From NCBI GenBank assembly GCA_049840735.1, contig JASGJN010000020.1, forward strand, positions 768,001 through 832,000: a stretch of DNA of 64,000 nucleotides. Direction: 5' to 3'. This document shows, one piece after another, positions 30,599-58,520 of the stretch (position 1 is the stretch's first letter; every line of letters begins with the position of its first letter). The notes beneath the pieces are model-generated. The model did no database searches. It was not told the DNA's origin and saw nothing but the letters and a program-made list of their open reading frames with translations. Source of the DNA: Anaeromyxobacter sp. (lineage in GTDB: Bacteria; Myxococcota; Myxococcia; Myxococcales; Anaeromyxobacteraceae). Position numbers and translations under genes: made by a program.

Positions 30599-30610
30599 GC
30601 TTCGCCCCAG

Positions 30611-30792
30611 GGCCCCGCTCGCCGGCCCCGCTCGCCGGCCCCGCTCGCCGGCCCCGCTCGCCGGCCCCGCTCGCCGGCCCCGCTCGCCGGCCCCGCTCGC
30701 CGGCCCCGCTCGCCGGCCCCGCTCGCCGGCCCCGCTCGCCGGCCCCGCTCGCCGGCCCCGCTCGCCGGCCCCGCTCGCCGCAACCGCTCGCC
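30611..30792. repeat. Tandem repeat: 13 perfect copies of GGCCCCGCTCGCC plus one degenerate copy
   Basis: Direct reading: 30611-30779 = 13 x 13 bp, then GCAACCGCTCGCC. Confidence 0.95.
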
Positions 30793-39972: not shown

Positions 39973-39985
39973 TGGTTGCGGGGGC
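39973..39985. repeat. att core copy 3 (left end of element C)
   Basis: TGGTTGCGGGGGC; hairpin at 39938-39967; left flank nearly identical to 30870-30910. Confidence 0.88.
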
Positions 39986-40464
39986 GCGCTGGTGAGGTTG
40001 TCTGCGCCGCTCAGCTTCATGCTGTGATCATCCACTGCGCCCTCTCACGATCACTTCCCCCGTCGGGGTCGACGGCGCCTCCTGGTCGTGGAGTCAGTTC
40101 GTGAGAGACGAAAACGAAGTGACGGGCGGGCGGTCACGTCATGTCGACGTGACCGCCTCTCGGGGAACGCGGCGAGTCAGGCGCGCGTTTTGGTCGTCCT
40201 GGACAGGCTTCGGGCAATCGCAGGTGCGGCCCCGCACGGCCGGCGATGTCCGCCGCTTGCGTTTGGCGTTTGTCGCGTAGCGTTCTCGTGGCACTTCGTT
40301 GTCCGTAGACCTACAGTCTCGTGGGATGCGCCGCACTCGAGCAGCCTCTGACGATGCACCGATCAGCTTCATGAGGTCCCCGCCCACAACGTCCCCACCC
40401 AGGCTAGCCGCCAGTTCGTGTCGTCGATTCTGGTAATGGCGGTTCGATATTGAGTTCGGCCGGC

Positions 40465-41223
40465 TCAAGGCCCCACCCCACTCGATGGCGCGCTCACGAC
40501 TAGGCGTCGGAACGCTTCTGTGACTCGGGCCTGAGCTTCTGCTGCTGACTCGTTCCAGATGCCCGCTAACACTGGAACGATCTGCGCAGTCTCCAAGGGA
40601 ACACAGGGCGACCGCGAACGGCGCCGAAGGGTCCATCCGACTCGGGCAGCAGCCGGTCCCTCGGCATCGCTGCCACCGCAGCACGGCCTCTCGCAGACGA
40701 AAGCATCGAGGGGTTCACCGAAAACCAGCAGCCCATCTCGGCGGCACGAGCAGATCTGCCGGTCAGTTCCCAGATACCAGTGAAGTACGAACTTGCCTGC
40801 GGATGGCTCTTCCTGGAGGACATCGAGGATCCCTCCAGCTGCGCCACGGCTATGCAACGAAACGATCCGCCCTCCGGCTGTTCGGCAGAGGCGCAGGATG
40901 TGCCTGAGAACGTCTTGCTGGCGCCCGAGATGCTGGCGATGCAGAGGGGATCCATCTAGCCCCACTTCTCCGACGTAGGCAGTCTTCACCAGTAATGCTT
41001 CAAACCGCGAGAGCTCGTGCTCGTGCGTCGCCACAAGTTCTGGGTGAAGGCCGACCGCGGTGCGGATCCGGCTCGCCGAAGGTACGAGCTGCGAAGTTCC
41101 GTGGAACGCAGAAGGAACTGTCGTGACCGACAGAACGTAGATGCGACGTGCAACGCACTCCCGCACGACCCACGCCGCGTCAGGGTAGAGATCGAGATGG
41201 CAGTGCAGGTCTACTACAACCAC
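40465..41223 (-). CDS. qatD: Qat system TatD family nuclease (compensating frameshifts in the 3' part)
   Basis: DLHCHLDLY, GLHP, GEVGLD, HSR, HWY; FSVNP...ESDGPF in the alternate frame; last gene of the qat operon. Confidence 0.85.
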   Translation of the reverse strand: MVVVDLHCHLDLYPDAAWVVRECVARRIYVLSVTTVPSAFHGTSQLVPSASRIRTAVGLHPELVATHEHELSRFEALLVKTAYVGEVGLDGSPLHRQHLGRQQDVLRHILRLCRTAGGRIVSLHSRGAAGGILDVLQEEPSAGKFVLHWYLGTDRQICSCRRDGLLVFGEPLDAFVCERPCCGGSDAEGPAAARVGWTLRRRSRSPCVPLETAQIVPVLAGIWNESAAEAQARVTEAFRRLVVSAPSSGVGP

Positions 41224-42482
41224 GCGATGGTACCCACGAACGACCGCAACTCGTTCAAGCCCCGCCGAACCACGTCGACGTATAGCGCTCGCTGAGCGGT
41301 GTCACTCGGCAGCGGCCCGGACGCGACAGTCCAGCGTTCGAGATCGCGCTGTTTCAGCGCCGCGGTAGCGAGGCGGACGGCAAGCACGTCGTCGTTGCTT
41401 CCTTCGACGGCCAGGTTCACAGCGTAGTACGGGGTCTTGTCCTTCACGGCCGCGTAATCCATCGCCGCGCGACGAATGAGGCAAGGCACGCAGCGGCCGC
41501 ACTGCTTGTTCAGCCGCTTCCCCTTCCCGCACGAGTACGACAGGTGCGCGAGCTTCCTAATCCTGTCGTCACCGCATGCCTTGAGCATCTCGCCCTTCGT
41601 CTTGCTGCCGTACGGGTTCAAGATCTTCGCTTCGATGCCGACAGCATCAAGAACCTTCTGTATGGAGCCGATGAAGTACGGATGCGTCGTTCTCGTGCTC
41701 AGGCTCCCCAGTCGGCGATACGTGAGCGGCGGGTTGATAGCGATGAGCCCGTTCTCGGGCACGTACACAGTCACGGGCGCACCGATGTCCGCGACGAGCG
41801 CGCTGGCCGCGAGCGCGCCATAAGAAATGAACAGCAGGGAGCGCGCTCTGCACGACGGCTCATATGGTGGCTTGAACCGTTCCCGCACCCGCCCCTCGAA
41901 CCGGTGCGCTCCGAGGCCGATTGCAGTCGCAAGCTCCGCCTGCACACCACCCTCCTTCGGCGACGCCTGACTGACAAGAAGAGGGGACCTGCCCTTCGCG
42001 ACGAGATCAAGCGCTCCGATGAGGCTATCCATCCCACCCGAGAACAGGCATACGCAGTCGCGGTCAGTATTCGTTTGCTTGACGTCCGGCGGTCCGATGC
42101 CGCCATCTTTGAAAGACACCCTCCAGATGTCCCCTGTCAAGAACGTGAGTGCGTCCGCCAGCGCGCGCCCATGCGCGTTCCACGGGGCTGGTTCCATGAG
42201 CTCGACCGTCAGGTCGATCTCGCGCGTCCAGCCGTCGGCCGCTTCGTTGCGCAACACGAACCGATCTGCGGCGAAGACCGAGAGCGCGAAGGACAGGAAG
42301 TCCCATGCCCGAACGCTCGGGGCACGCGGTAACTGCTTCGTCGACTTCAGCAGCCATTTGCCCAACCCAGGCAAGCGCTCCGTTCCCGTGTTGTAGAGCG
42401 CGACGGGGACACCCCCCTGTGCCTTTGCGGCCGCCTTCGCACGCGCGCGGTCGGGCCCTGCGTACACGCGGGTCAGCGCCAT
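41214..42482 (-). CDS. qatC: Qat system QueC-like protein
   Basis: LFSGGMDS, ENG..INPPL..RRLGSLSTRTTHP, TKGEM, SCGK, CGRCVPCLIRRAA. Confidence 0.9.
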   Translation of the reverse strand: MALTRVYAGPDRARAKAAAKAQGGVPVALYNTGTERLPGLGKWLLKSTKQLPRAPSVRAWDFLSFALSVFAADRFVLRNEAADGWTREIDLTVELMEPAPWNAHGRALADALTFLTGDIWRVSFKDGGIGPPDVKQTNTDRDCVCLFSGGMDSLIGALDLVAKGRSPLLVSQASPKEGGVQAELATAIGLGAHRFEGRVRERFKPPYEPSCRARSLLFISYGALAASALVADIGAPVTVYVPENGLIAINPPLTYRRLGSLSTRTTHPYFIGSIQKVLDAVGIEAKILNPYGSKTKGEMLKACGDDRIRKLAHLSYSCGKGKRLNKQCGRCVPCLIRRAAMDYAAVKDKTPYYAVNLAVEGSNDDVLAVRLATAALKQRDLERWTVASGPLPSDTAQRALYVDVVRRGLNELRSFVGTIAWL

Positions 42483-43324
42483 CTCGCCATCTCCTCTTCG
42501 ACCACCTCAACAAGCCTCCTCACCAGCGCCGTCATAGAGGCGGGAGTGAGTGAGTCGCCCCAGCTGTCCATCACCTCACCGCCAACCGCCTGCGCAGCTT
42601 CGTGGATGACCTCACGGATGTCGTTCTCACGTTGCACCGCAGCCGCGGGACTTGCGGCGCCTGCAAGTGCTCGTCCCGCATCGCCGGCCACAGCGACGAA
42701 GACGAGCTCCGCAGCCAGAGCGAGGGTTGCGATCCGAATCGCATTTGCGTCCAGTGCGGTGGGGTCGAAGACATCGACCCCCTCCAGCGCAGTCGCAAGC
42801 GCCTCCCCTACAGCGATCCGCGCCCATTCGTCGTCAAGAATGCCGGGGGGGCAAAACGCATCGACGATCCGCGACACCGCGGCGTCCGCTGGGAGCCCCA
42901 CGAGCGTTCGGACATCGACAGGGGCGCCCAGAATCGGTGGCAACCCAGCGACAGCCCGCGATACGCCGGCGAGAGCGGCGCCAGCGCGACTTGCGGCTCG
43001 AGCGACGCGCCGGCTTCCAGTGTGCGCTCCGCCGGACGCGTGCGCCCATGAGCCGAGCGCCCGCCGCGCGTCGGCTCGAGATCCCGTGCGCGCGCAATGC
43101 CGCAGCGAGATGCGAAACCCGGAGAAGCGCCGCGGCTCGGCTTCCGGGGCAGGTCCGTCCGACTCAGGTCCTTGTTCCGCCGGGCCCGGCGGTTGCGAGG
43201 CGCCTTCTCCGCCGCCCTGATCCTCACCGACATCTGGAGGCGGCATGCTGCCTCCGCCTTCCGCCCAGGGCGGCACGAGAGGCGAACCAGGCCGAGCGTC
43301 TCTCTTCGATTGCGATGTCCCCAT
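42473..43324 (-). CDS. qatB: Qat system protein QatB
   Basis: MGTSQS...PLVPPWA N-terminus; position between the ATPase and the QueC-like gene. Confidence 0.82.
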   Translation of the reverse strand: MGTSQSKRDARPGSPLVPPWAEGGGSMPPPDVGEDQGGGEGASQPPGPAEQGPESDGPAPEAEPRRFSGFRISLRHCARTGSRADARRALGSWAHASGGAHTGSRRVARAASRAGAALAGVSRAVAGLPPILGAPVDVRTLVGLPADAAVSRIVDAFCPPGILDDEWARIAVGEALATALEGVDVFDPTALDANAIRIATLALAAELVFVAVAGDAGRALAGAASPAAAVQRENDIREVIHEAAQAVGGEVMDSWGDSLTPASMTALVRRLVEVVEEEMARWR

Positions 43325-43340
43325 CTGACAACTCCACCCG

Positions 43341-45083
43341 CTACTTTCGCAGGAAGCCCGTCAGCCTAAATGCTGATGCGTCGCCCTTGTTGATCGTCAC
43401 GGGGAGAGTCTCCACATACGCGCGAAGCTCGGCCTCGCACTCAGGAGCCGATTTCGCCAGGATGATCGCGCCATGAACCCCCTGGACGCGCTTCGACCAC
43501 TCCGCCTGACGCATCGCGCGGATAAGTTCGGTCATCACGATGACTCGGTCGGCTGGCGCAAGTTCCTCCGCTATCCTCGCTGCAGCTGGGGAAGCGACGG
43601 AATCGACCAGCAGTAGAGCGTCGATGGCCTGCCGTACGGCTTCCGTGATCCCGGCGCGCGGGAGCGCGGGCGCCATGACATCGCGGCTCAAGAAGACTGC
43701 CGGCTTCAGGTCAATCTTGTCATCGAACGGAGGATCCATCCCTCGCCACCGCTCGACGAACGCCTCGAACTTCTTCCACTCCGGCGGCAGCTCAGCCTGA
43801 TTCTTATCAGTTGCTGGCGCGAGCACCTCTGTGCCCGTCCCCGTCATGACGATTCGGTAGAGCGCGAGCGTCGCCGCCTCGTCCGTGCCGCGCTCGAACA
43901 CAGCGAGCTTTGCAAGCGTTGCAAGGTCGACGGCCATTCCTCTGCTCGCAGCAAGCTCAGCGCGCAGCATGATCGAGTTCAGAAGTCGCTTCACGATCCG
44001 TGGGTTGCCCTGAATAGCGGGCGCGGACACAAGCATCGGCGCGAGCTGATCGGCAACGCTGAGTTGGTCCAACATGCCACCCGGCTTTCCGGCCAACTCG
44101 TCGATGTCCTTTCTGGTGAACGTCGCGCCTCGCCAGGCGTTCTGAAGCGATGACATCAGTACCGACTGCACGTCCTTGAGCTTGCCAGGAGCCTTCAGCG
44201 AGACAAACAGCGAGAACATGTACGCGCGAAGATCTTCGGGCCCCACCTGCGGCACACGAAGCGGAACTTGGATGACCTTGTCCAAGTAGTCGCGGATGTG
44301 AGGGGCCTCCGGATCGCTGAAATGCTTGGCGACCGAGTGTCGAATCATGCCCTCGTCAGCAGCAATCACAAAGGCCGTTCGCGGCATGAACAAGAACAGG
44401 CGCATAGCCTCCAGCGTGCCGATGGCGACGTCGGGCAGGCATCTGTCCAAGTTGTCGACGAATAGCACAAGAGTTCGGTCCGACTCCTCGAGGACTTCGC
44501 CAAACTCTTTGCGGAACAGGTGAATCTGCTTGGGCGGGGTCTTCTTCTTCTCCGGCTTGATTAAAGCCTGCGCCTGGGACTTTGCCGATGAGGCACCCTG
44601 CTTCAGTGCCTCGTAGTCTGCCGGCTTTCCCTCGCCGGACCCCAGCGCAGCGAGCGAATGGATGGCCGACCCCACCGGGAGAGGCACGCCGGTGGCGACA
44701 CTAGCCCCGAGATCAACCGCAAGCGCAATCGCGCGAAAATAGTTCACTCGCTTCGCGAGCTTGAGCGCCTTCTTGTACAGCGGCGTGTCCTTCTCGAGCT
44801 GAGCGAGCAACTTTGCCGCGACGACCTCCATCAACGCGGCGCGAGCGTCATCAAACCCCTGATACAGCCAAGCATCAAAAGTAATGACGAGCGGCTTCGA
44901 CTTACCCACCGATGACAGCCGCGCCTGAACTAGCTGAAGGACTGTCGACTTCCCCGTCCCCCAGCCTCCGAACACTCCAACCGATATCGGGAGCAGTTCG
45001 GGTTTTGTGACCAGCGCCGCGATCTGGTCGGCGACTTCAGTAAAGTTCAGGAAGTCCTGGTCGGCCTCGCTGTCTCGCCACAT
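43341..45083 (-). CDS. qatA: Qat system KAP-family P-loop ATPase
   Basis: MWRDSEADQDFLNF, GGWGTGKST, FDAWLYQG, VDNLDRC, YLDKVIQVP, GNPR.VKR. Confidence 0.9.
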   Translation of the reverse strand: MWRDSEADQDFLNFTEVADQIAALVTKPELLPISVGVFGGWGTGKSTVLQLVQARLSSVGKSKPLVITFDAWLYQGFDDARAALMEVVAAKLLAQLEKDTPLYKKALKLAKRVNYFRAIALAVDLGASVATGVPLPVGSAIHSLAALGSGEGKPADYEALKQGASSAKSQAQALIKPEKKKTPPKQIHLFRKEFGEVLEESDRTLVLFVDNLDRCLPDVAIGTLEAMRLFLFMPRTAFVIAADEGMIRHSVAKHFSDPEAPHIRDYLDKVIQVPLRVPQVGPEDLRAYMFSLFVSLKAPGKLKDVQSVLMSSLQNAWRGATFTRKDIDELAGKPGGMLDQLSVADQLAPMLVSAPAIQGNPRIVKRLLNSIMLRAELAASRGMAVDLATLAKLAVFERGTDEAATLALYRIVMTGTGTEVLAPATDKNQAELPPEWKKFEAFVERWRGMDPPFDDKIDLKPAVFLSRDVMAPALPRAGITEAVRQAIDALLLVDSVASPAAARIAEELAPADRVIVMTELIRAMRQAEWSKRVQGVHGAIILAKSAPECEAELRAYVETLPVTINKGDASAFRLTGFLRK

Positions 45084-45384
45084 GGTCGGTGAACGTAGCA
45101 CGCAGCGTCGACATCAAGCACAACTGTGTATGCGACAGGGTGTCGTGATCTCGGCGGATGGGCGACAGCACCCCGCCACACCTTCATTCACGGTAAGATC
45201 GAACCGCAGCAACGATGCCGCTGCGGTTCACGCCCACTCGGTCACTGGCCGCATCCGCCCGGCTCCAAGGCCGCAATCGATTTCCCGGCGCCTCCACCAC
45301 TCAACTACCGGAGAACATAGGGGCCCGCGCAAGCGAGCTTCTTCGTGTCCCCCACGTCTCTCCCGTCCTCTCCGTCTCCTGTTC

Positions 45385-45610
45385 GCCGGCGATCGAGGAG
45401 CCGGATCGCGGCGTCCTTCGCCCCAGGCAACAGGATGCATGCAGCGCATCGTCTTCGTCAGGTTGGGGCGCCCCGCCAGTTCCTGAATCGCCTCCGCGGG
45501 CGGGCCATGCATCGCGAGGCGCCACCAGAACGAGTGGCGCAGGACGTGGACCCGCCTTTCACCGGCAGCGCTGCCTGGCGCTGCGCCTGTTCCATCCAGC
45601 GACAGACGAG
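45385..45610 (-). pseudogene. Tyrosine integrase C-terminal remnant
   Basis: Minus strand VHVLRHSF.WRLAM.G.P.EAIQELAGR.NLTKTMRCMH...KDAAIRLLD (HxLRH intact; catalytic His and Tyr positions decayed). Confidence 0.65.
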
Positions 45611-45638
45611 CGTGTTCGTCGGTGCGGAACTGTTGATG

Positions 45639-45923
45639 CTAGCGGCGGAAAATGCCGTTCGGATCGTTCACGACCCGGCCGCTGGAGTCTCGTTCAACGC
45701 CGACCATACGATCGAACACGGCGCGCATCTCCGGAGGAAGCGCCTCCTTCTTCTTCCTCTCGTCGGCCACGTGGAACCGCCAGCCTAAAAAGAACGCGAC
45801 GCCTAGCGTGCCGACGCCGCCGATCGCGGCCCACAACACTGAGAACACGCTGTCAGTTGCGTATCCGCCGGCGAAGCCGCCGAGCACCGCCCCTACGAGC
45901 AACGTGATGACCACCGGTCCCAT
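45639..45923 (-). CDS. Small two-TM membrane protein
   Basis: Two hydrophobic segments; GGAGG RBS. Confidence 0.6.
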   Translation of the reverse strand: MGPVVITLLVGAVLGGFAGGYATDSVFSVLWAAIGGVGTLGVAFFLGWRFHVADERKKKEALPPEMRAVFDRMVGVERDSSGRVVNDPNGIFRR

Positions 45924-46050
45924 TTGCGCCTCCCCTGTCTCTCAGATGATATCACCAGCATACCAGCCGATCGGACACGAACACATGACGTGCGACATCG
46001 TTCGTGCGCTAATATTCCGGGCCGAACGCAGTCGTACTCCGGGGGTGAGG

Positions 46051-47403
46051 ATGGCTGACGCGCCGATTCACGAGTTCGAGAAGGTTCGGTTCTTCGCGGA
46101 GCACCTCGAGACCAAGGGCCAGCGAGTTGAGTATTCGCGGATCCGCTCCCTCGACTTCGCGCGCATCACGCAGAATTCGTCCGGCCAGGCGCACCACCAG
46201 ACGATCCTTCTGGTCGAACTTACGGACGGGTCGAAGCCTGTCGAATTCTCGGTGGTCCCGAACCGCTCGATCTTCGGGGGAGACGACTACGACGCGCGAG
46301 CCGGCGCGCTCGACGCGCTCCATACTTTCCTGGCTCGCGCGACCTATGACCAGCGACTCCGGTATTACCTCACGGAGCTAAGCGAACGCGGGTACTTCAC
46401 GTACGGCGACAAGCGATTCCATCCTGACGGAACTGTCGCGCTCGAGAACGGCCGCACGGTCTCCGTCACCGAGCACGCGCTCTCGGTTCAGCCCCACAGC
46501 ATCACGATCGAGATACCGGCGGCCAAGAAGGGACTTCAGCGATTCAAGGACTTTTGGGACTCACCAAGAGTCCAGATCCTCGCGTTCACGAACAACGACT
46601 GCATGATGGCGCTTCTCAAGCTCGTCTACGGCATCCAGTGGTTCAAGATGGATGACCTCCGGTTCGGGGCAACGAGTTTGCGAAAGCCCGGCGAGACCAC
46701 CAGGCCACCTGACCACGTACTCTTCAGCTCACCGGCACCGAGGAACCGTTCTGGGTCCGAGGCCGCTACTGATTTCCGAAACGTTGACTCAGAGCGGGTG
46801 CTCGACGCCTGCAAGGCGATGGCCGCGCACCTCGCTGACTTCGCCGCTCCACGAGTTCAGGCCTCGAAGCTGCAGTGGGGGTTCGGGTACCAGATGCTCG
46901 ACGTGAAGAGCCCCGAGGCCGTCCAGGCTTTCGCGAAGTGCCTGCCCGAATCGGCATTCCTCGGTTACTCCTTCGGCGTGCTGTGTATGCTCGCCTGCGT
47001 TCACCTGCCGGCATTCCCGGGGACCGAGGGGTATCAGAAGGCGCGAACCCTCGTCGGGACGGAACTGTGGTACCGGATGCTCGACGGGCTTCCGAAGCTC
47101 GTCCATACAGCCATGGGCGAGAAGCTGACGGAGATGATGGTTCGCACAGCCATCGCGGAGATCGACGCGGCGTTCAAGAACGTTCAGGAGTGTGCCGGCC
47201 TCATGAACGCGCATGCGGACAACCCGCTCGCGCCTCTGCAACGGGCACTCGCGAAGCGCACGGGCCTTTGGGTAGCGGACGACGCGGTAAACCTCGACCG
47301 GTCGCTCCACGACGAAACCAAGAACCTACTCGCACTGGGTGCTGGCGTCCTGGGGGTCCCGGTGAGCCCCTCGGCAGCGAAGTCGGCCAGCTTCGGCCGT
47401 TAG
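46051..47403 (+). CDS. Hypothetical protein
   Basis: 450-codon ORF with natural composition; RBS before MADAPIHEF; stop overlaps the convergent gene. Confidence 0.7.
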   Translation: MADAPIHEFEKVRFFAEHLETKGQRVEYSRIRSLDFARITQNSSGQAHHQTILLVELTDGSKPVEFSVVPNRSIFGGDDYDARAGALDALHTFLARATYDQRLRYYLTELSERGYFTYGDKRFHPDGTVALENGRTVSVTEHALSVQPHSITIEIPAAKKGLQRFKDFWDSPRVQILAFTNNDCMMALLKLVYGIQWFKMDDLRFGATSLRKPGETTRPPDHVLFSSPAPRNRSGSEAATDFRNVDSERVLDACKAMAAHLADFAAPRVQASKLQWGFGYQMLDVKSPEAVQAFAKCLPESAFLGYSFGVLCMLACVHLPAFPGTEGYQKARTLVGTELWYRMLDGLPKLVHTAMGEKLTEMMVRTAIAEIDAAFKNVQECAGLMNAHADNPLAPLQRALAKRTGLWVADDAVNLDRSLHDETKNLLALGAGVLGVPVSPSAAKSASFGR

Positions 47404-48032
47404 TAGAAGCGGAGACGTGCTTCCCACTGCAGCGCGGAAGCACGGTCAGATGCTTCCCTCCGAACGGCTTCAAGCGCCCCGGGCCGGTAACGGTAGCTCG
47501 AGCACCGACTGTTGTAATCCTGGACGTACCTGTTGAACGTATCAACCCGGCCATTGTTGGTCACCAGCGGCTTCATGTATCCGATCCGCTCGTCCTCGAA
47601 GATGCAGTAGCGGAGTTCGCTTATCGAGAGTGACCTCCCAGACCCGACGGGCGGCTTCGTTTCCGTGGAATCCGACCTACCGTACGAGGATCGCACCCCG
47701 TCCCCGGAGTTCCCAGAAGAACTCGCCGGAGACGAGTACGACGCGCTGCCGGAGCTCGCGGTGTATCGGCTCGGTTTTGTGCTCGCCGTGTCGCACATCC
47801 AGACCAAAGCCGCGATACCCCCAACGACCCACACCTTGGCAGGGATCGCGCCAAGCAGTGCTGCCAGCCCCCCAGAGCCGTTCGCTGCGGGTCGCGGGGA
47901 TGGGGCCGGGGTCCGCGGTATCGGAGGCGGCGGTGCGCGGGCGGCCCGCTCTGCCGCATCCACGTCAGCAGCAACGTCGGACACCAGGTCAGCGAGCCCA
48001 GAGAAGCCAACGGGATCCGAGGAGCCGCTCAT
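47400..48032 (-). CDS. Single-pass membrane protein with a two-Cys extracytoplasmic domain
   Basis: Pro-rich linker, TM (VWVVGGIAALVW), Ser-rich linker, ETKPPVG...ELRYC...FNRYVQDYNSRC. Confidence 0.7.
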   Translation of the reverse strand: MSGSSDPVGFSGLADLVSDVAADVDAAERAARAPPPPIPRTPAPSPRPAANGSGGLAALLGAIPAKVWVVGGIAALVWMCDTASTKPSRYTASSGSASYSSPASSSGNSGDGVRSSYGRSDSTETKPPVGSGRSLSISELRYCIFEDERIGYMKPLVTNNGRVDTFNRYVQDYNSRCSSYRYRPGALEAVRREASDRASALQWEARLRFY

Positions 48033-48036
48033 GAGG

Positions 48037-49098
48037 TCACCTCAACTTCCCTTGCCGCATGAGTTCCGCGAGCAACGCCGCGTTCGAAGGCACGTTCGCC
48101 ATCCTGTCCAGGGTTGCGATGTCGTTGTCTAGGAACTCGACGACGCGGGGGACCTCGGCGAAGACGGCGCGGAGCATCGAGGTCAGCCTCCGAGCGGCCC
48201 ATAGCATCGCATGCTCGTTATGTAGATCGACGGCTGTCGAGCGAACCCGGTTGACGAGCTGGATGCTCGGGGTGTGATCGATCCCCCTCGCCATCGCACT
48301 GAGCTGGATCGGTTGCGCCACCGCGTCCCAGTTTCGTACCACCTGCTCGATGCGTTCGATGAGACGATCGAGGGTTGCCCGCTGTGCTCCCTTCTTCGCC
48401 GCCGAAGTGAGAGCGCCGAGTAGCTGGCCGACGGCCACTGACTCGAGTTCCAGGAACCGCGCCGCATCAACCTCGTACGAGTCAACGAACTGGTCGACGA
48501 GCAACGGCGCATGCTGGCGCCCCTTGCCGGTCGTGCGGTCCACAATCGCGGTCACCGTCTCTACGAGTTGACGGGTCGGCATGCGGTCGAGCGCGGTGCG
48601 CACCGCAGCTACATAGAACCTGCGCTGTTCTGCGATCGCCTCCTCAACGAGGTCCTGCTGCAGAACCTCGGGCATCTCCGCCGCGGCGCGGTCCTCGTTG
48701 ATTGCGTCGAACACCTCCTCAGGATCCGTCTCGTCGTGAGCGGTGGCGAGCGTGACGATCCATTCGACGGCAGCCCCCACGGGCATGGAAGTCGTGGTGA
48801 TCGCCAGAGCAGACGCCGCAAGATTCGCCATCGCCAACGGAGGCAAGCCGTTCGCGCGGACAGCGGAAGCGGTGGCCAGATCGCGGACTAGGTTCGTGCA
48901 ACTCTCTGGATCCACCCCCGGTAGCCAGCTCACCTCAACCGAAACACGCTGCCTCGGGTTGGTGAGATCCGCACGCGCCTTTGCGCACACGTCGGAGTCC
49001 ATCATCAGCGCGCGGTCCTCGGCGAGCTGCATGATGCGGCGGCGACTGTCTCTGGTAGTGGCACCGAGGAGGTGGAAGGGGTTCTCGCGTAGGTTCAT
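48037..49098 (-). CDS. Helical protein with J-domain-like N-terminus (no HPD)
   Basis: NPFHLLGA...AKARADLTNPRQR resembles the first and last helices of J domains. Confidence 0.55.
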   Translation of the reverse strand: MNLRENPFHLLGATTRDSRRRIMQLAEDRALMMDSDVCAKARADLTNPRQRVSVEVSWLPGVDPESCTNLVRDLATASAVRANGLPPLAMANLAASALAITTTSMPVGAAVEWIVTLATAHDETDPEEVFDAINEDRAAAEMPEVLQQDLVEEAIAEQRRFYVAAVRTALDRMPTRQLVETVTAIVDRTTGKGRQHAPLLVDQFVDSYEVDAARFLELESVAVGQLLGALTSAAKKGAQRATLDRLIERIEQVVRNWDAVAQPIQLSAMARGIDHTPSIQLVNRVRSTAVDLHNEHAMLWAARRLTSMLRAVFAEVPRVVEFLDNDIATLDRMANVPSNAALLAELMRQGKLR

Positions 49099-50535
49099 GG
49101 CGTCCTGAAGCCGATGGCCGTGGGCTTCGCGTCTTCCTTCGAACGAGATGGAGCGGACTCGAGCGCCGCCTCCAAGCTGCGGAGGTCGATGGTATCGAGG
49201 CCCCGCTTGGCTGCGAGTCTCGCGCCCTCCCGCACCACGAACGCCACATCCGAAAGCGGTCGGCCGACGAGCTTCACCGCAAGAGTTGTGACGTCGACCG
49301 CAATGCCACCTGGGATCCGGGACAGAACACTCGACAGTAGCGACCGGACCTCCAACTCACCTGGCATCCCGACTTCGATGACGTGGTCGAACCTGCCGCG
49401 GCGCAAAATCGCGGGGTCGATCATCTCGATCCTGTTCGTCATCCCGATGACCAGGACGCGGTTCTCGACAGCTTCAGGCATGCGGCGGAGAAACTCCGCA
49501 ACCTCTTCAACGTGATGAAGCCCCTGCCCACCGCCCGCCTGTCGATCCGACAGGAACGACTCCATCTCATCGATCACGATAACCGAGGGCGACGCCTTGA
49601 TCGCGTCGTCGAAGACCTTCGCGATCTTCCTGCCGGTTTCGTGGATGTACGGGCTGCCGATGGTGCTCGAATCGACGGAGAAGCTAGGCCAGCCGAGGTA
49701 CTCGATCAGCCGCTCGATCGCGAACGTCTTTCCCGATCCAGGTGGGCCGTACAACGCAACCGGCGCCGGGAACTGAAGCCCCAGCGGGGCGTAGCGACTC
49801 TCGTTGTCAATCAGGTCGATGACGTGTTCGAGGAAAAAGTTCTCGAGCGCAGCGCGTCCTGGCAGCGTGAATGGCTGACGGGACGGAGAACCGGTGGGGC
49901 CAGCCTTGGGCTGCTTCCCACCACCCTCCGAGCCGGCGTTCACGAGGGTACCGCCGGCGCCGGGAACTGTGTCGGCAGCAGCGAAGCCCGCCGCATCAAG
50001 AACGCTCTTCAAGTCAGGGGTAGTCAGTCGTCCGACTAGCGAGACTAGTCGTCTGAACGACGTCGTCGAGACCCGAACTCCGCCGGTCAGCCACATCCCG
50101 AGCACTACGTCATCCGATAGCGCTGGGGCGAGGGACCAGGTCGGCAGCAGCCGCGAGATCCGCTCCACGTAGAGAGCGTCATGCAGCGGCGCATCCCGCG
50201 TGATGCGACGTGTCTCGTAAAAGGCGATGGCGAAGCTCATCGCCTCGGCCTTGTTCCACGGCCCTCGGGACTCCACTACGGGGCACACCACCTGATTTGC
50301 TGAACTCTCGAAGAAGGCGATCTGCTCGCCGGCAAACGATACGTAGCGAGGCGCAACTTGATCGAGCAGCCTTGCATCGGTCCATCGCTGCAGTAGTGCC
50401 TTCCGGACAACCAGCGCGCGTCCGCCTGAGCTTGTCTCGTACACCTGCCACCCGGGGCCCTCGAAGAGGGCCCGGCGAGACGTGTTGCCCTGTTCCAGCC
50501 GAAACCCTGAAGGCAACCAAGGATTCGATGGCCAT
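49095..50535 (-). CDS. AAA+ ATPase (classic clade) with N-terminal domain; likely +1 frameshift near 50520
   Basis: GPPGSGKT, VIVIDEME, TNRIEMIDPAILRRGRFD; ATG at 50535 overlaps the Hsp70 stop and gives MAIESWLPSG if one T is removed. Confidence 0.85.
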
Positions 50536-53033
50536 CAGCCCCTCAGGATGTTCGCGGCCTCGAACATGTCCCCACTCCTCGCGCCACTGATCCGAATCCG
50601 CGCGAGCCCCTGGACCACTTCTCGGAGTCGGTCGATTTGGTCCCCCTGCAGTGCGGCAACGCCTGCCTGGACCAGCTCAGCGAACCGCCTCCTGTCCAGG
50701 AAGTCATCCGGGGAGTCAACCATCGACTTGAACCGCCCGACGACGAACCAGTCCTGCCGCCACAGAATCTCGAATCCGCGTCCCCTCACCTCGTCGATGA
50801 TGTTCTCGAAGTCCTTGTCGCGCGTATCCACGGCCCTCTGAGCGGTCAGGAAGAGCGCATCGACAGCCTTGATCTCGGCAGGCCGCGCGTGAGGTCTGAT
50901 GAGCTTGTCAAACGAGGCCGTCAGCTCATCGAGCTCGATCTGCCGGATCTCCCTCGAGTGTTCCATTCGGACATCCGCGAGGAGCTTCTTGGCCTCAAGC
51001 ACGTCGTCGCGGGCTTGCTTCGCTGTCTCGGGATCTTGCTCTGCCGGCCTGAGCGCTGCTGCTGCCGACAGCTTCTCGCGCGCCTCGTCAATCTTGGGAT
51101 TGTCGATACGTTCGGCGAGCTTGTCGAGCCGCTCGTTCGCTTCCTCGACGTCCCTCACGATCTTCGCACCGGCCGCCGTGAAATCGACTTGCCCGTCCTG
51201 TCGCGAGTAGTAGTTCCGCCCCGAGTGAAACGAGGCACCGATCCGGGGGACCGAGACTTCGAGCGTGATGAGCCCACTGTCCGTGATCTCGTACTCGCAT
51301 ACGAGATCATCACCTGCGGCGATGACTCCGTCCTCGAAGTCCGTCCCGACGATCTTCATCGAGCCGACGAACTCGTTGTCATGGATGACATCCTTGATTT
51401 CGCCTTCCCAGAGTTTGATGTTGATCGAGCCGGAGGTCTGCGCTCGAAGCGACTCCCCCGCCTTGAATTGGGCCTTCCCTTTCTTCGGGAGTGGGTCGCC
51501 CTGCTTCAGCAGGTACTCCGAAACCGAGCGGCCTCCCATCTTGTCCAGAGCCTCGACGAAGACTGAGTGAGACGCCGGGATTGCGTCGATCGTCGCCGCC
51601 GTTCGAGCGATGACGATTCGGTTGGACTCGAGCGGTATCGATGCCCCGCTCGAATCGAACGCGAACACCTTGAACTGATGCTCTCCCTGCACTGGGAGCT
51701 GCAACTCGACGGCGGTACCGTCCGACAACGGGAGACGGCCGGAGGTCCAGCCCGTGTCGAGGCTGTCGACCTGGAACTCGGCGCCGACCGGACGGGGGCC
51801 CTCGACCTTCGCCACGACTCGAGCTTTTGCTTGCGTGGTCCTCGCGTTGAAGACGAAGGAGACCTTAACCAGCCCGGTGGCTGCGACCGACCCCTTAGAA
51901 CCCTTGCGGCTTCGGCTGGACGAGCTCCAGTCGATCGACTCGGCGAAGACCGCAGCGCCCTCCGCGACCGCGGTCATCGGGTTCACTTCCGTGCTCCCGC
52001 GGACCCCAAGCTCCTCGCAGACCCTGTCTCGCAGAGGCTTGTATTGGGTAGGACCACCGACAAATACGACCCCCCGTTTGACATCCTCCGCGCGGAAGCC
52101 CGACCTCGCCAGGGTCTCCTTCGTGGCCCGGATCGAATCGTCCACCTTTTGCGAGATGAGCCGGTCGTACTGCTGCCGCGAGATCTCGACCTCGAAGTAG
52201 ACGTCAGAACCGGAACGATCCTTGACTGCGACCTCCCGCTCGTCGAGTCGCACCACGGCGGTTTCGTTCGCGGACAGCTCGATCTTGGCCCTTTCTGTCG
52301 CCCAAGTGGCGACCTGCACCAGCTTGCGCCAAGCCGGGTCTTCAAGAAGCGCGTCCGGCAGATCGAAGTTGGAACGCAACCAGGGAGCGACAACGTCAGT
52401 AACGAGTGCCCGGTCGAAGTCGCGCCCGCCGCACATGGCGATGCCGCCGTGCGCGTGAAGCGTGACGCGGCCGCCGATGCTCTCCGCGATGGCGATGTCG
52501 AGCGTGCCGCCACCCAGGTCGTAGATGACGAAGATGCCGTCGTCGCGGTTCCCCCGCATGACGCTCATGACGGCTGCGACGGGCTCCTGCATGAGCGCGA
52601 CCTTCCCCAACTCTGCGAGTTCGGCCGCCTGGAGAGTCGCGTCCTTCTGCATCTGGCTGAACGCAGCAGGGACAGTGATCACGGTCCCTGTTTCAGGAGC
52701 CCGCCGGACCTCCTCGGGAAGGTAACCAAACAGGGTCCGGAGGATCTCCGCGGAACACTGCTCCGGGGAAAGCGTCAGGCCGGCAGCCGGCAGGGAGATT
52801 GGCGTTCCCGTACCCATCAGTCGCTTGAATCGCAGTGCCGCTGCGTCCTCGTACTTCGGTGCGCTGTCGTAGGCGCGGATGCCGACGAGACGGCCGCCGC
52901 GCTTCTGGTACAGGAGCGCGGAAGGCGTTACGTCGTTCTGCTCCGGACTCTTCCACAGCCGCACAGCCTTACCGTCGAATGTCGCGATCGCGCTGTTCGT
53001 TGTCCCGAGGTCGATTCCGACGTAGTGCCTCAT
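50535..53033 (-). CDS. Hsp70-family protein (non-canonical, ~830 aa)
   Basis: VGIDLGTTNS, VITVPAAF, QEPVAA, YDLGGGTLD, GGRDFD, AKIELS, FVGG, AVAEGAA; extra insertion before the SBD-like region. Confidence 0.92.
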   Translation of the reverse strand: MRHYVGIDLGTTNSAIATFDGKAVRLWKSPEQNDVTPSALLYQKRGGRLVGIRAYDSAPKYEDAAALRFKRLMGTGTPISLPAAGLTLSPEQCSAEILRTLFGYLPEEVRRAPETGTVITVPAAFSQMQKDATLQAAELAELGKVALMQEPVAAVMSVMRGNRDDGIFVIYDLGGGTLDIAIAESIGGRVTLHAHGGIAMCGGRDFDRALVTDVVAPWLRSNFDLPDALLEDPAWRKLVQVATWATERAKIELSANETAVVRLDEREVAVKDRSGSDVYFEVEISRQQYDRLISQKVDDSIRATKETLARSGFRAEDVKRGVVFVGGPTQYKPLRDRVCEELGVRGSTEVNPMTAVAEGAAVFAESIDWSSSSRSRKGSKGSVAATGLVKVSFVFNARTTQAKARVVAKVEGPRPVGAEFQVDSLDTGWTSGRLPLSDGTAVELQLPVQGEHQFKVFAFDSSGASIPLESNRIVIARTAATIDAIPASHSVFVEALDKMGGRSVSEYLLKQGDPLPKKGKAQFKAGESLRAQTSGSINIKLWEGEIKDVIHDNEFVGSMKIVGTDFEDGVIAAGDDLVCEYEITDSGLITLEVSVPRIGASFHSGRNYYSRQDGQVDFTAAGAKIVRDVEEANERLDKLAERIDNPKIDEAREKLSAAAALRPAEQDPETAKQARDDVLEAKKLLADVRMEHSREIRQIELDELTASFDKLIRPHARPAEIKAVDALFLTAQRAVDTRDKDFENIIDEVRGRGFEILWRQDWFVVGRFKSMVDSPDDFLDRRRFAELVQAGVAALQGDQIDRLREVVQGLARIRISGARSGDMFEAANILRG

Positions 53034-53386
53034 GCATTCGCCTTCCGAAGGAGCACGGTTCCTGCCCGAACGAGCTGGCTCTCGCCCATGAGGATGGGCT
53101 CGAGCATCTGGTCGATGACGAGTGCATCGTCGGCCGCGAAGTCTCCGAGGTTCAGCGGAGTGACGGCGGCCCCGGGATCGAACGGTTGGTTCTCGACGTT
53201 TACGAGCCGCAACCCTGCGGCATCGAGCGATTCCGTCAGCTTCTTGACGTACCACCGCAACTGGCTCTCGTAGCGAGCCTTCTCGCCGGCATCGAGCCTG
53301 GCGAGCATTCTCACGAACACTCGCGTGAAGCGCCAGGACTCGACAGCCATGTCGATGAGCGCCTTGCGTTCGTTCGAATCGTTCAT
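53030..53386 (-). CDS. Short GrpE-like protein
   Basis: Helical N-terminus, then GLRLVNVENQPFDP...LEPILM...LVRAGTVLL resembling the GrpE head; ATGA overlap with Hsp70. Confidence 0.6.
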   Translation of the reverse strand: MNDSNERKALIDMAVESWRFTRVFVRMLARLDAGEKARYESQLRWYVKKLTESLDAAGLRLVNVENQPFDPGAAVTPLNLGDFAADDALVIDQMLEPILMGESQLVRAGTVLLRKANA

Positions 53387-54019
53387 GGAGCGTCGTCTCT
53401 CCTTGGTCTCGCTCACTCTGGACGCTGCGCTCCTGACTCCGAGAACGCTTCAGCTCATTCGAGAATGATGCGGAAGTCTTTGCCCGCTGTCGAGATCTCG
53501 CCTGCTCCGCGGGAGTGGAGTTTCGACACCAACGTTAGGCCCTGCCACTCCACTTTCGAACTGTGCCGCTGAAATGTGATCGAGGCGACCGGTACTGCTG
53601 CGAGTGCCAGGCCGCCGCACGGGTTAGCTGCATCCGCGCCGCTCGCCTGTGCCACCGCAGGTCCGCGAAATGACGGGCGGATCAGCGGGGCGTCGGCGAT
53701 CGCCGCGCCCGCCGCCGCTGGACACGCCTATCGCTCACATACGCGGTGTCGGCTTCCTCGCCACCTGCAGCAGCGCCTTCGTCTACGCAACGGTGGACGG
53801 CGGTCCGGCGGCGTGGATTAGGCCTTACAGCGGGTCACCGCGGCCGGCTGGCGCGTTACGATGGACACCGCCTCCGCAGTGCCTCGCGGCGGCGCGTTGC
53901 TCATTTTCAAGGCCAACCGCCGGGGGGCCTCGGAGCAATGCACCCGAGTGATCAACGCTCCAGGGCGGCGTCGTTCCTCGCCCGCCCGCGACCACGAGCG
54001 ACGACTAAGAAACCTCTCA

Positions 54020-54262
54020 CTAGATGTAAGTGAGGATCAGGATATCGTCCGGGTCCCAGTGCGCCAGCACGGAGTTCTCTCGAGCGAGTTGCTGCCGCGT
54101 CTTCGCGCCCGAGGCGATCGCTGCCTCGTCCCGCGCCTTGTCCTGAGCCTTCGCGGCGCGGAAGGGCGTCATCGGGCGCGAGGGACCCACGCGACGGCCC
54201 CAGCACGACCAGTCATCTGGAGCAGTAGGGGCCCGCGTGTCGCGGGGTTTCCGGTACGCCAT
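54020..54262 (-). CDS. Small hypothetical protein
   Basis: 80-codon ORF downstream of the XRE gene. Confidence 0.4.
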   Translation of the reverse strand: MAYRKPRDTRAPTAPDDWSCWGRRVGPSRPMTPFRAAKAQDKARDEAAIASGAKTRQQLARENSVLAHWDPDDILILTYI

Positions 54263-54330
54263 GGTTGATACGTACCACCGGCAAACTCTGCGCGCCACCA
54301 CCCCCGGAACGCCTCGCCGGCTGCGGGCGC

Positions 54331-54570
54331 CTACCTGGACCGCTCCTGCGGACCCCCGAGCAGCTCCCAGAGGTCCACCCCGATCGCCGCGCTGACCCTC
54401 AGCAGCGTCCGGATGGTCGGGTTGACGGCCCCCTGCTCCAGCCGCTGGTACCGTTTGTAGTCGATGCCGCTGCTTGCGGCGACGGCCTCTTGCGTGAGGT
54501 CCGCCCGCACTCGCGCCGCGCGGATGCGCCGCCCGACTTCCTTGAGGGCCTTCGTCTCGGTGGTCGGCAT
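54331..54570 (-). CDS. XRE-family HTH regulator
   Basis: VGRRIRAAR...LTQEAVAASSGIDYKRYQRLEQG..NPTIRTLLRVS. Confidence 0.88.
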   Translation of the reverse strand: MPTTETKALKEVGRRIRAARVRADLTQEAVAASSGIDYKRYQRLEQGAVNPTIRTLLRVSAAIGVDLWELLGGPQERSR

Positions 54571-54591
54571 GCGCCGCCGAGAATCGATGGC

Positions 54592-54626
54592 TTGGGAAGA
54601 TCAGGACACCGCACTATAATACGGTG
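54592..54626 (+). promoter_or_regulatory. Sigma-70 promoter divergent from XRE, with an IR around the -10
   Basis: TTGGGA-17nt-TATAAT; CACCG...CGGTG flanks the -10; ATG at 54629. Confidence 0.6.
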
Positions 54627-54628
54627 CC

Positions 54629-55160
54629 ATGTTCGAATCCGCCCGCGAGTTCTACGAAGCCGACCCGACCGTTCGCACCGTCCGGCTTGGACATTCCCGC
54701 ATCGTCATCCCCGCCGTGAAGCCAGTGAGCGAGGATCTCCCTGACCCGGGATCCCAGCCTTCGCATGTACAACGGCGACCTCATCCGATGCGTCACTGTG
54801 GCCGCCTGGTGTGGCAACGCCGCGGCCCTGCGGGCCCACGACGAGTGGGAGCGAACGATCACGCGCGAGCGCCTGGGTCCCGAGGCCGATCCGCTCCTCG
54901 GCTGGCACGAGCTAGGTTCCCTGGCTCCTGGTGGAGCGGCGCTCGAGGAGTTCGACTTCAGTGCGTGCAACCACTGGATCATCGCCGAGGCGATCCGCGG
55001 CCAGTTCTGGTGGAGGGCCGTCGAGCGGGCGGAGTGGTTTCCGGCGGCTCGAGCGTGCCTGGAGTCAATGAAGGCCCCGCGGCCGATGCCCCGGTCGAGG
55101 CACCGGAGCCGCACAGGTCGACGTCGCCCGGGCGGCGACCGTCGCGACAGGGCACGGTAG
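54629..55160 (+). CDS. Hypothetical protein (apparent frameshift near 54740)
   Basis: MFESAREFYEAD... joins ...RMYNGDLIRC...IIAEAIRGQFWW after a 1-nt shift. Confidence 0.5.
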
Positions 55161-55615
55161 CACCGGGCACTCGACTGAAACCGCTTCTCAGCGTTGCCGG
55201 GCGCGTGGCCACCGTCCCGGCCAAGCGACCTCCCCTGCCTTCCTCACGATCTCCCGCGACTCCCCCGTCCCTGGCTCAGTCTTCCGCCTACCCGACTGGC
55301 CTGGGGCCTCCTCACTCTCCACGCCTGACCCGGCCCCGAACTCGTCGCCTGTCTTCAGCTTAGCCACCCCGGCCTTCATCCAAGCACCCGACCACCTCGG
55401 CCCAGCCTTTCTTCCCTTCTTCCTCCCTCTCCCCTCCGACTTCCACAGGCATCCCCTGCTCGCGCCCCAACCCTGCAACTTCCATTTTCTGACACTCCCA
55501 ACACCACCCTCATCCTCCCCCTTCTCCCCTTCTCGTCATCCATCTCTCCACTACCTCACTCCTCATCCATCCTCCAATCCGACCTTCCCTCCGCTTCCTC
55601 CTGTTTCACTCACCA

Positions 55616-55676
55616 CTCACCCCGCTCCGACCCCTTACTCCAAGTCGTCGGGAGTGAGGGGTCGGAGCGGGGTGAG
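55616..55676. repeat. 26-bp inverted repeat with 9-nt loop
   Basis: CTCACCCCGCTCCGACCCCTTACTCC / GGAGTGAGGGGTCGGAGCGGGGTGAG, 25 of 26 Watson-Crick plus one U-G. Confidence 0.9.
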
Positions 55677-56291
55677 CCATTTCGTGCGCTTATCGCAAGT
55701 CCCGGCATGAGCAGGAACGTCGTGTGTTCTTCAGCGTTTCCCTCATCTGGCCGTCACCCTCGGTGACGCTCAGGGTGCCTACACCCCTGGCAATCCGAAT
55801 CGCCAGGGCTGTAGGCAGGCAAACGCATCCCGCAGTTGCCTGGCGTTCTGCCTGCCTACACCCCCGTTCGACGCAGAGGACGGAGCGCCGGCGGCGAGTT
55901 CGCCGCTTGCGCAACCTCGGTCGAACTTGTCGAGGCAGGCGCGGCGGAGTTCCCATTCTGTGCGCCCATGACTGGTCCCACGCCTCCCTGAACCTCGCAA
56001 TCAACCAACCACCTCTCGCTGCGGTTGATTGCGCTCGCGGGCTGGTCATGCCACGCGGGCTGGCCCGGGCCGGTGCGCGCCGAGTCCGCACCACCACCGA
56101 GCATCTGGGCCACTCCGTGGCTGCGCCCCAGCGGGTTGCGGTGGCCGCCATCCCCGGGTTGACTGCGCTCCACCTTGCCCTGGGTTCGCGAGGACCCGAT
56201 TTGTATTCTATTTGCACTACATTGAGATCACGATTGCGTGTCTCACTAACAACGATTTGACCTTTTCTGAGCCCCCGGGCAGGATGAACCG

Positions 56292-56794
56292 ATGCCCTCG
56301 GCGCGCTCCCAGCGATCCAGAAGGCGTGGCACGCCCGCAGAGACGAGCGACTCGCTCCAGCTCGCGCTGCCCGGGCTGACTGGCGTGGAGCCGGGTTCTC
56401 CCGCCCCCGGAGAAAGCACTCGGCCGGAGGATCCGCCCTACCCCGAGCCTCGACGCCAGCCGGTGACCGCACCCCAGGAGCGCGAGACGTCTGTCGCCGC
56501 TCCATGCGCGATGAAGCAAGCGCCCTCTCGCGAAGCGCCCAGCACGCGAGAGGAGCGCCTTGCACCCCCTGCCGCGGAGCAAACGCCCGCCCCGCCTTCC
56601 AAGCAACCCCCGCGCCGCGAACACAGTCTTGAGGTCCGCGTCGATCGCACCGGCTCCGACTCCTCGATACGCCGCATCACGAACCAGTACGTGGACCGCG
56701 CCGCCAGGATCGCCGCCAAGCTCTATCTGGAGGACCGGCTCCCGCCGCTCACCGGAGTCGGGCCCATCAACCCTGCCCTCCTGGGGAAGAAGCC

Positions 56795-56798
<4 letters not shown>
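56292..56798 (+). CDS. Small protein coupled to the recombinase (possible directionality factor; start uncertain)
   Basis: GTGA stop/start overlap with the recombinase; only the C-terminal ~60 aa look globular. Confidence 0.4.

Positions 56799-58520
<1,722 letters not shown>

Follow-up and report, generated by a model that had tools for sequence, protein, structure and literature searches.

A conserved mobile operon of a divergent Hsp70, a Cdc48-like ATPase and a tagged membrane protein in Anaeromyxobacter sp.

Analysis of a 64,000-nt stretch of the Anaeromyxobacter sp. genome (GCA_049840735.1, contig JASGJN010000020.1, positions 768,001 to 832,000; hereafter the window) revealed a five-gene operon that is a real, conserved and mobile system of known chaperone parts, in an arrangement unlike any described system tested. 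It encodes a GrpE-like protein, a divergent Hsp70, an AAA+ ATPase, an all-helical adaptor and a single-pass membrane protein with a short cytoplasmic tag (Table 1); we refer to this gene set and its homologues elsewhere as the cassette. We consider it highly probable that its architecture is that of a tag-recruited remodelling machine at the inner membrane. An initial annotation, made from the sequence alone, had inferred a dedicated, non-housekeeping remodelling system on a mobile element, which is supported by the conserved gene order, the patchy spread and the separate grpE-dnaK-dnaJ locus of the host.

Table 1 Location of the operon, of its neighbour and of the carrying island in the window
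Feature	Position	Strand	Basis
GrpE-like protein, 118 aa	53030..53386	-	Short helical part + beta head
Divergent Hsp70, 832 aa	50535..53033	-	Pfam HSP70
AAA+ ATPase	49095..50535 (open frame 49095-50534, 479 codons)	-	Pfam AAA
All-helical adaptor, 353 aa	48037..49098	-	AlphaFold2 model, predicted groove
Tagged single-pass membrane protein, 210 aa	47400..48032	-	Hydropathy, invariant residues
Tag coding sequence (residues 9-20), predicted adaptor docking	47973..48008	-	Pattern counts, complex model, position-specific scoring matrix
Stand-alone adaptor C-terminal module (part of convergent open reading frame 45652-47403; likely start ATG 46051)	46051..46656	+	HHalign 87.7%, E 3.4e-6 to second C-terminal class
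qatABCD, island co-cargo, outside the cassette	40465..45101	-	PADLOC QatA, QatB, QatC, QatD, E 5e-159 to 2e-34
att core copy, left island end	39973..39985	+	Match to tRNA-Met 3' end
Large serine recombinase of the island	56795..58462	+	Pfam Resolvase, Recombinase, Zn_ribbon_recom
tRNA-Met, with the right-end att core as its 3' end	58441..58517	-	tRNA call + core match

Open reading frame (ORF) analysis of the window placed all five genes on the minus strand, tightly packed within 47400-53386. The GrpE-like and Hsp70 genes overlap by ATGA (53033-53030), the Hsp70 and AAA genes by TGATG (50537-50533) and the AAA and adaptor genes again by ATGA (49098-49095), while 4 nt separate the adaptor gene from the membrane protein gene. 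These frames and junctions confirmed the five co-oriented, coupled genes of the initial annotation, except for the start of the AAA gene, which lies one base out of frame. The GC content of the operon stretch is 60-66% and that of the host-genome contigs 71-76%. A scan for promoters and terminators gave chance-level results, with one weak site at 53493-53465.

A scan of metagenomes, in which 422 of 428 pattern matches were confirmed, returned 80 loci, and two more loci from GTDB brought the total to 82. At least 6.7 kb of sequence upstream of the adaptor gene was available in 43 of them, the other 39 being dropped as too short; this filter favours loci with the membrane gene before the adaptor. 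Genes for the GrpE-like protein, Hsp70 and AAA preceded the adaptor gene in that order in 42 of the 43 long-flank loci, so that the proposed survey of gene order found synteny kept. The loci span a GC content of 0.34-0.64, the 55 full-length Hsp70s fall into 27 clusters at 90%, and the membrane gene lies before or after the adaptor gene, sometimes in two copies. The cassette is present in 4 of 301 genomes of the host's phylum, host included, and in 1 of 5,426 Escherichia coli genomes; 72,556 plasmids yielded four near-full adaptor matches, and 50,697 phage records no match to the GrpE-like protein. Annotated records showed it directly after Tn7 genes, near an integrase, between zorA and BREX-2, and in a tRNA-Phe island beside rdrB and a dptF fragment; as six of the seven annotated records came from a plasmid collection, this mobility is partly a matter of selection.

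Other genes recur with the cassette in part of the loci. In L008, L018, L030, L059, L068 and others the gene after the adaptor encodes a conserved protein of ~214 aa without annotation (a cluster of 18 ORFs), which is sometimes fused to a tagged membrane protein (L033), and 6-8 loci share a further block that includes an RDD gene; both are absent from the window. Two distant variants on rhizobial plasmids (L095, L096) encode an adaptor-like protein, a GrpE-like protein and an 840-aa Hsp70, have no AAA gene, and lie beside restriction and OLD/UvrD-type genes.

The membrane protein begins with GFSGLADLVSDV and consists of a cytoplasmic tag, a proline-rich linker, a transmembrane segment at residues ~55-80, a serine-rich linker and an outer domain with two cysteines. 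G9, F10, G12, L13 and S18 are invariant, as are C143 and C177 in 32 of 32 aligned relatives, which together with the hydropathy profile verified the single-pass topology and two-cysteine outer domain first described. A PDB sequence search with this family returned matches only via peptidoglycan-binding domains of relatives. The tag, with the pattern GF(A/S)GLxxLVS, is found again on unrelated single-pass proteins of the relatives: 96 matches were counted in 69 of 92 loci (1.12 Mb) compared with two in the 6.67-Mb host genome, one of them the window gene. Two or three copies occur in 24 loci, and 80 of the 96 tags are followed by a hydrophobic segment and 58 by the two-cysteine domain. Outer domains of the tagged proteins include peptidoglycan-binding, TPR, ankyrin, TonB-C, EB, EGF-like and SH3 domains.

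In a three-chain model of the adaptor, the AAA N-domain and the tail, the tag was placed in a groove of the adaptor with an ipSAE of 0.81, compared with 0.00 for the best control. Runs agreed in at least 97% of the contacts with a partner predicted local distance difference test score (pLDDT) of at least 80, all confident contacts fell on adaptor residues 104 and 167-260, and replacing the adaptor reduced the value to 0.00. No confident contact between the AAA N-domain and the tag was seen in this model, which is not evidence against such a contact, and a PDB sequence search gave no like complex. The 14 core groove positions are conserved above average (0.76 vs 0.62). Two complete loci without a tag by regular expression had kept the groove, and a position-specific scoring matrix then found tags in both, namely on a divergently encoded SH3 protein in L005 (score 36.4) and on the product of the gene after the adaptor in L091 (32.3); the AAA-less variants L095 and L096 carry no tag, and L096 also lacks the groove residues. 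The model supports tag-adaptor binding as a prediction. The earlier idea that the membrane protein is a sensor or client is supported by this predicted contact, and the conserved gene order and patchy spread also fit. A 12-residue tag on unrelated membrane proteins, together with a predicted groove, represents a concrete and cheaply testable wiring rule, and the tag is possibly a portable tool for sending proteins to an orthogonal chaperone.

Pfam searches verified the proposed Hsp70 and AAA identities (E 3.9e-51 and 5.8e-29). The AlphaFold2 model of the Hsp70 (pLDDT 77.7), for which Foldseek returned full-length DnaK as top matches, comprises an ATPase domain, a beta-rich block, a substrate-binding beta domain and ~210 helical C-terminal residues. 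The block, a beta-sandwich of ~100 residues at roughly 380-477, corresponds to the extra insertion noticed initially. Features of Hsp70 family membership are present, namely an actin-like ATPase domain, catalytic residues, a beta-sandwich substrate domain and a helical lid, and D8, K70, P122, E150 and T177 are invariant in 16 aligned rows. Based on an alignment to the host DnaK and on DnaK numbering, we take P122, E150 and T177 to be DnaK P143, E171 and T199. Canonical DnaK features are absent: the protein has 832 aa where a canonical DnaK has about 640, it scores 174.6 bits against a cut-off of 822.55, the residue equivalent to R167 is alanine in 53 of 55 sequences, and the position of the VLLL stretch of the DnaK linker DVLLLD reads AA(S/T/Q)(I/V) in most of the Hsp70s. 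According to the accessible text of PMC8215388, the HPD motif of DnaJ contacts R167 and the linker of DnaK, and hydrophobic linker residues are needed for stimulation. Both halves of this contact are lost here, the adaptor having no HPD and the Hsp70 no R167. A catalytically intact Hsp70 without R167 and without the hydrophobic linker, paired with a partner without HPD, provides a natural test of rewired J-type activation. The host genome holds 24 HSP70-family matches, many at separate loci, and two canonical GrpE genes.

The GrpE-like protein of the window has no Pfam match, and the Pfam GrpE model (PF01025) was matched weakly by 3 of 112 relatives, all below the cut-off (best E 0.0012, profile positions 15-164). 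In the Atlas, a neighbouring cluster with the automatic name 'putative GrpE' scored 0.96 and the nearest Pfam cluster, GrpE, 0.87, while HHalign against the host GrpEs gave probabilities of 37-46% on a GQPFDP stretch. A PDB sequence search with the family, which comprises 774 clusters at 50% identity, gave no match. The likeness is weak, with consistent signals from three analyses, so the GrpE-head assignment of the initial annotation keeps converging profile, Atlas and HHalign support, albeit with every Pfam match below cut-off; judged from sequence, the protein is probably a private nucleotide-exchange factor. Fusions of GrpE-like domains to Mrr_N, EVE and HsdR_N (3 of 112 relatives) may lean towards defence, yet they are possibly read-throughs.

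The AAA protein finds its best PDB sequence matches in NVL, VAT and p97, and Walker A and B, the aromatic pore loop and the second region of homology with its arginine fingers are conserved in its family. The sequence thus indicates a single-ring, classic-clade AAA+ protein with a Cdc48/VAT/NVL-like module. Its N-domain of 185 aa has no assigned family; a pseudokinase reading was dropped because HHalign against 14 host kinases reached only 0.1%. In 132 of 135 homologues an IGF motif lies close to the C-terminus (49095-49120 in the window); it resembles protease-docking loops, but the operon encodes no protease.

The ATPase module and uncharacterised N-domain claimed initially therefore stand, and the TGATG start codon does not: its ATG (50535) is offset from the AAA frame by one base, the extra one near 50524. 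The first in-frame start, TTG at 50516, would cost the protein a tryptophan conserved in at least 90% of the relatives, and relatives at 80-89% identity begin with MAIDPWLP. A ~90%-identical contig (X1) is without one base at 50524, in an alignment that has 56 gaps overall. Other frame changes occur in the assembly, with two Hsp70 paralogues and 1 of 15 test orthologues split. The extra base is probably an assembly slip rather than a real inactivation.

The AlphaFold2 model of the adaptor is all-helical (pLDDT 92.2), with four short helices in J-domain order at residues 7-56, and its N-terminus carries an NPFxxLG...LxxPxxR pattern. An HPD or HPE motif is found in 0 of 91 rows of the adaptor alignment. 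A profile comparison gave no significant J-domain homology, a control window scoring higher (9.5%), and in the Atlas the adaptor reached only 0.78-0.81 against DnaJ-containing clusters. Foldseek with the adaptor model gave no match at E 0.001 or better, the PDB sequence search with the family no match, and the VIA fold search was uninformative (best Z 10.3, generic helical bundles over residues 200-340, with residues 1-158 barely covered). Of the J-domain-like N-terminus without HPD proposed earlier, the absent motif and the fitting helix order stand and homology lacks support; the J likeness, drawn from the motif pattern and helix order, is unproven.

Among 100 adaptor homologues 90 could be classified, 74 with a C-terminal extension and 16 short like the window adaptor, which is without the variable C-terminal module of most relatives. 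Of the C-termini, 54 form one beta-rich module, 12 a second, mixed cluster, seven have helices and a transmembrane segment, and one is different. By eye the modules may be PH-like; DUF6585 was weakly matched by 6 of 38 module members. We also considered that the last two operon genes are a split version of the usual 550-aa adaptor and rejected this, as the C-terminal module of most long adaptors is another one and the relatives usually encode their tagged proteins separately; an adaptor-transmembrane-two-cysteine fusion without a tag exists, rarely (P0076).

A module of the second class is encoded on the opposite strand by the convergent ORF, with GGGGGTGAGG just upstream of its likely start, and tblastn aligned it at 23% to adaptor C-termini of L010, L031 and L048. 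Because it is a copy of the second module and is kept collinear in X1, this ORF is a probable sixth member of the cassette. The last 250 codons of the ORF (46657-47403, plus strand; GC content at third codon positions 0.79) have no family match and may represent either an additional domain or another gene fused to the first. Just past it lies a 94-aa ORF with two hydrophobic segments (45639-45923, minus strand), which may belong to the cassette; the X1 alignment ends at 45648.

The operon is cargo of an integrated island. The att core, TGGTTGCGGGGGC, is the 13-bp 3' end of tRNA-Met and occurs four times in the window (58441, 39973, 35530 and 30918; 0.00 expected), so that the island spans 39973-58453. 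Core copies and PADLOC matches to the Qat proteins verified the initial description of an att-bounded element with qatABCD. A functional link between the operon and qatABCD was rejected, since the X1 contig aligns over 45648-53365 only and no Qat model matched any of the 170 neighbour ORFs scanned near the relatives; the proximity is therefore incidental. The tRNA-Met 3'-end copies divide 30918-58453 into three stacked segments, of which the two behind the island hold recombinase fragments (34872-35260) and, in one of them, AbiEii (36390-37310); this suggests repeated integration at a single site. Between short genes of the oldest segment lie three copies of a 70-nt repeat (31503, 33276 and 34662; 67-83% alike), which could be gene-cassette ends, and ~14 tandem copies of a 13-bp unit (CCCCGCTCGCCGG) occupy 30600-30790, just beyond the outermost att copy.

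We propose that the cassette would act on the inner side of the cytoplasmic membrane as a machine for protein remodelling that is complete in itself and spreads horizontally. The sequences show one to three single-pass proteins per locus, with swappable outer domains and a common short amphipathic cytoplasmic tag, which the adaptor would hold in its conserved helical groove, as modelled and with support from covariation. The adaptor may then recruit the private Hsp70 via a J-like surface without the HPD-R167 contact, because both halves of that contact are lost, and this loss would insulate the machine from host DnaK and DnaJ. By analogy with their families, the GrpE-like protein would reset the Hsp70 and the Cdc48-like ATPase would thread, extract or unfold the captured protein. 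An outside trigger, such as phage adsorption or injection, wall-cutting enzymes or a rival's effector, might lead to disassembly of the receptor complex or of a target on the variable C-terminal module of the adaptor. Conflict or defence at the envelope by target remodelling is the likeliest role, with about an even chance of being correct. The more specific proposal of a toxin- and nuclease-free immunity, in which a tagged receptor array directs the Hsp70 and a Cdc48-like extractor against invading membrane proteins, is tentative and on balance doubtful. If true, the cassette would be a bacterial counterpart of receptor-adaptor signalling and of p97-type membrane extraction, with an Hsp70 cycle that lacks the HPD-R167 switch found as standard elsewhere; if it stops phages, ATP-driven envelope remodelling would be a mechanism class absent from the PADLOC 2.0 models and the literature searched.

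Evidence on a defence role came from a PADLOC scan of neighbour ORFs at 39 loci, covering 170 cluster representatives from 293 ORFs in 342 kb of flanking sequence, and a Pfam scan of 68 selected neighbour proteins; the set excludes singletons below 140 aa, and genes in high-GC loci may escape the simple ORF caller. At 9 of the 39 loci we judged a defence gene convincing, namely Tiamat-like genes in L010, L030 and L072, AbiEi (L013), PDC-S57 (L051), GmrSD (L054), a type I methylase (L058), PsyrTA (L059) and PDC-S28 (L092), and about six more have partial matches. Beside cassettes we also saw qat and AbiE in the window, and Zorya, BREX-2, RdrB and DptF in other records. For the five genes themselves PADLOC 2.0 has no model for four and matched the fifth by generic AAA models only.

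Several points weigh against the proposed reading. The enrichment of defence neighbours is not significant (9 of 39 compared with 1-2 of nineteen random 8-kb regions, taken from the host's phylum only; one-sided p 0.09-0.22), the same arrangement accounts for three of the nine positive loci, and housekeeping genes (argJ, GMP synthase, glgC, xseA, cytochrome b) or integrases make up many of the neighbours. No nuclease, protease or other recognised effector domain was found, the AAA gene is frameshifted in the present assembly, and the J-domain profile test of the adaptor failed (HHalign probability 1.7%). The tag pattern was derived from the same, related loci in which its 96 matches were counted, and the count therefore shows specificity and not independence. 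In the ipSAE calibration 116 of 157 solved pairs and 2 of 215 mismatched pairs attained the mark. These counts are a rough guide to the complex job, which, unlike the calibration, had three chains and our own alignments. The full predicted interface of 39 residues is not conserved above average (0.60 vs 0.62). Of the anti-phage role first suggested, the recurrent defence neighbours thus remain as support, without significant enrichment and with an incidental link to qatABCD. The E. coli copy (L094), with all five genes annotated as intact, makes a direct test possible.

Other explanations have to be considered. The cassette could serve biogenesis or quality control without any immune role, with the tag as an address that sends a set of envelope proteins to a dedicated chaperone and extractor to be inserted, assembled or turned over, in the manner of HscC-DjlB/DjlC, and thereby help under envelope stress or in surface interactions. 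The absence of an effector fits this view; every client is an envelope protein, with peptidoglycan-binding domains in many, further envelope genes (RDD, lipoprotein-like) lie downstream in a subset of loci, and the lack of significance in the defence neighbourhood also suits it, as does HscC, which pairs with membrane-anchored J-proteins and whose suggested targets are the cytosolic parts of membrane proteins (PMC8215388, available part). However, the outer domains are freely swapped, a single 210-aa receptor suffices in the window, which would be a large folding investment, and the cassette is rare, patchy and recurs beside defence genes; we regard this explanation as rather unlikely. A guard based on chaperone addiction, where the machine keeps the tagged membrane protein harmless until a phage protein outcompetes the tag or inhibits the chaperones, so that the freed protein damages the membrane and aborts infection, appears improbable. 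Toxin-antitoxin-chaperone (TAC) systems do sense phage via competition with an addiction peptide (10.1101/2024.02.24.581848, in the part at hand), and the short conserved tag with its aromatic residue is predicted by the model to bind a dedicated partner, but Pfam and PADLOC recognised no toxin domain, a locus with a split Hsp70 gene (L004) retains its tagged genes, and the window combines a broken AAA start with an intact receptor.

Mobile protein-quality-control islands exist and provide a model for a second Hsp70/AAA bichaperone that confers general stress tolerance by disaggregation or heat resistance. The parts do mirror DnaK, GrpE, a J-protein and an AAA+ partner, and the cassette is mobile. 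Nevertheless, HPD, R167 and the hydrophobic linker, which carry J-stimulated ATP hydrolysis according to the accessible text of PMC8215388, are lost, the ATPase is Cdc48-like and not ClpB, the cassette seems narrowly specific given its specific tag and obligatory membrane clients, and the host already has many Hsp70 genes; we regard this role as improbable. Our preferred reading is a remodelling machine in envelope conflict or defence.

Comparison with known systems revealed partial likeness in each case. With DnaK-DnaJ-GrpE (ClpB) the cassette has in common an Hsp70 of the same fold and catalytic residues that is joined by a GrpE-like protein, an AAA+ ATPase and a protein with a J-like pattern. 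It differs in the extra beta-sandwich, long helical tail, missing R167 and altered linker of its Hsp70, in an adaptor without HPD, in a Cdc48-type single-ring ATPase with tagged membrane clients, and in being mobile and rare. HscC-DjlB/DjlC and HscA/HscB are likewise dedicated Hsp70s with operon-encoded partners, HscC being membrane-directed; as far as the available text of PMC8215388 goes, HscC has 550-580 aa, works with J-domain partners and is thought to be GrpE-independent. In contrast, the cassette Hsp70 has 832 aa, its own GrpE-like factor, an AAA+ ATPase and tagged receptors, and falls well short of the family cut-offs for HscA and DnaK. The GAP1-N2/DO-GTPase systems are predicted conflict systems with HSP70, GrpE and a DnaJ-fused partner, with membrane-bound proteins in related themes, and are built around TRAFAC GTPases together with FNIII or tubulin proteins (Kaur et al. 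2020, PMC7159879, in part). Pfam found no GTPase among the scanned ORFs of operon and island, nor is there one among the conserved neighbour families. The classic AAA+ module of ietAS resembles that of the cassette, whose AAA protein is matched by IetA models at E 4e-20, but the score is 62 against a cut-off of 510, the cassette has no S8 protease gene and the N-domain is another. CnuD of the CoCoNuT systems is Hsp70-like, is encoded in operons with a predicted defence role and in some cases occurs with a CDC48-like ATPase; it is degenerate and tied to McrBC and HEPN nucleases in the accessible portion of PMC11090510, whereas the cassette Hsp70 has its catalytic residues intact. Pfam and PADLOC revealed neither an McrB or nuclease gene in the cassette nor a SecB-like chaperone or toxin-antitoxin pair among the five genes. 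The SecB-like chaperone of TAC systems is ATP-independent. In HigBAC and CmdTAC, a SecB-like chaperone accompanies a toxin-antitoxin pair and, as in our model, a dedicated chaperone recognises a short peptide element (10.1101/2024.02.24.581848, in part).

A full-text literature search, which mostly did not reach subscription papers and may miss supplements of screens that list it, did not find the layout, nor do the available parts of PMC7159879, PMC8215388, PMC13580251, PMC11019930, PMC11090510, 10.64898/2026.10.06.757031, 10.64898/2026.10.19.760177 and 10.1101/2024.02.24.581848 describe it. This agrees with the initial annotation, which knew of no characterised system of this kind; none matched among those compared here. 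Set beside these systems, the cassette may represent an undescribed envelope-level defence, and its most testable features are the wiring of tag and adaptor and the joint loss of HPD and R167.

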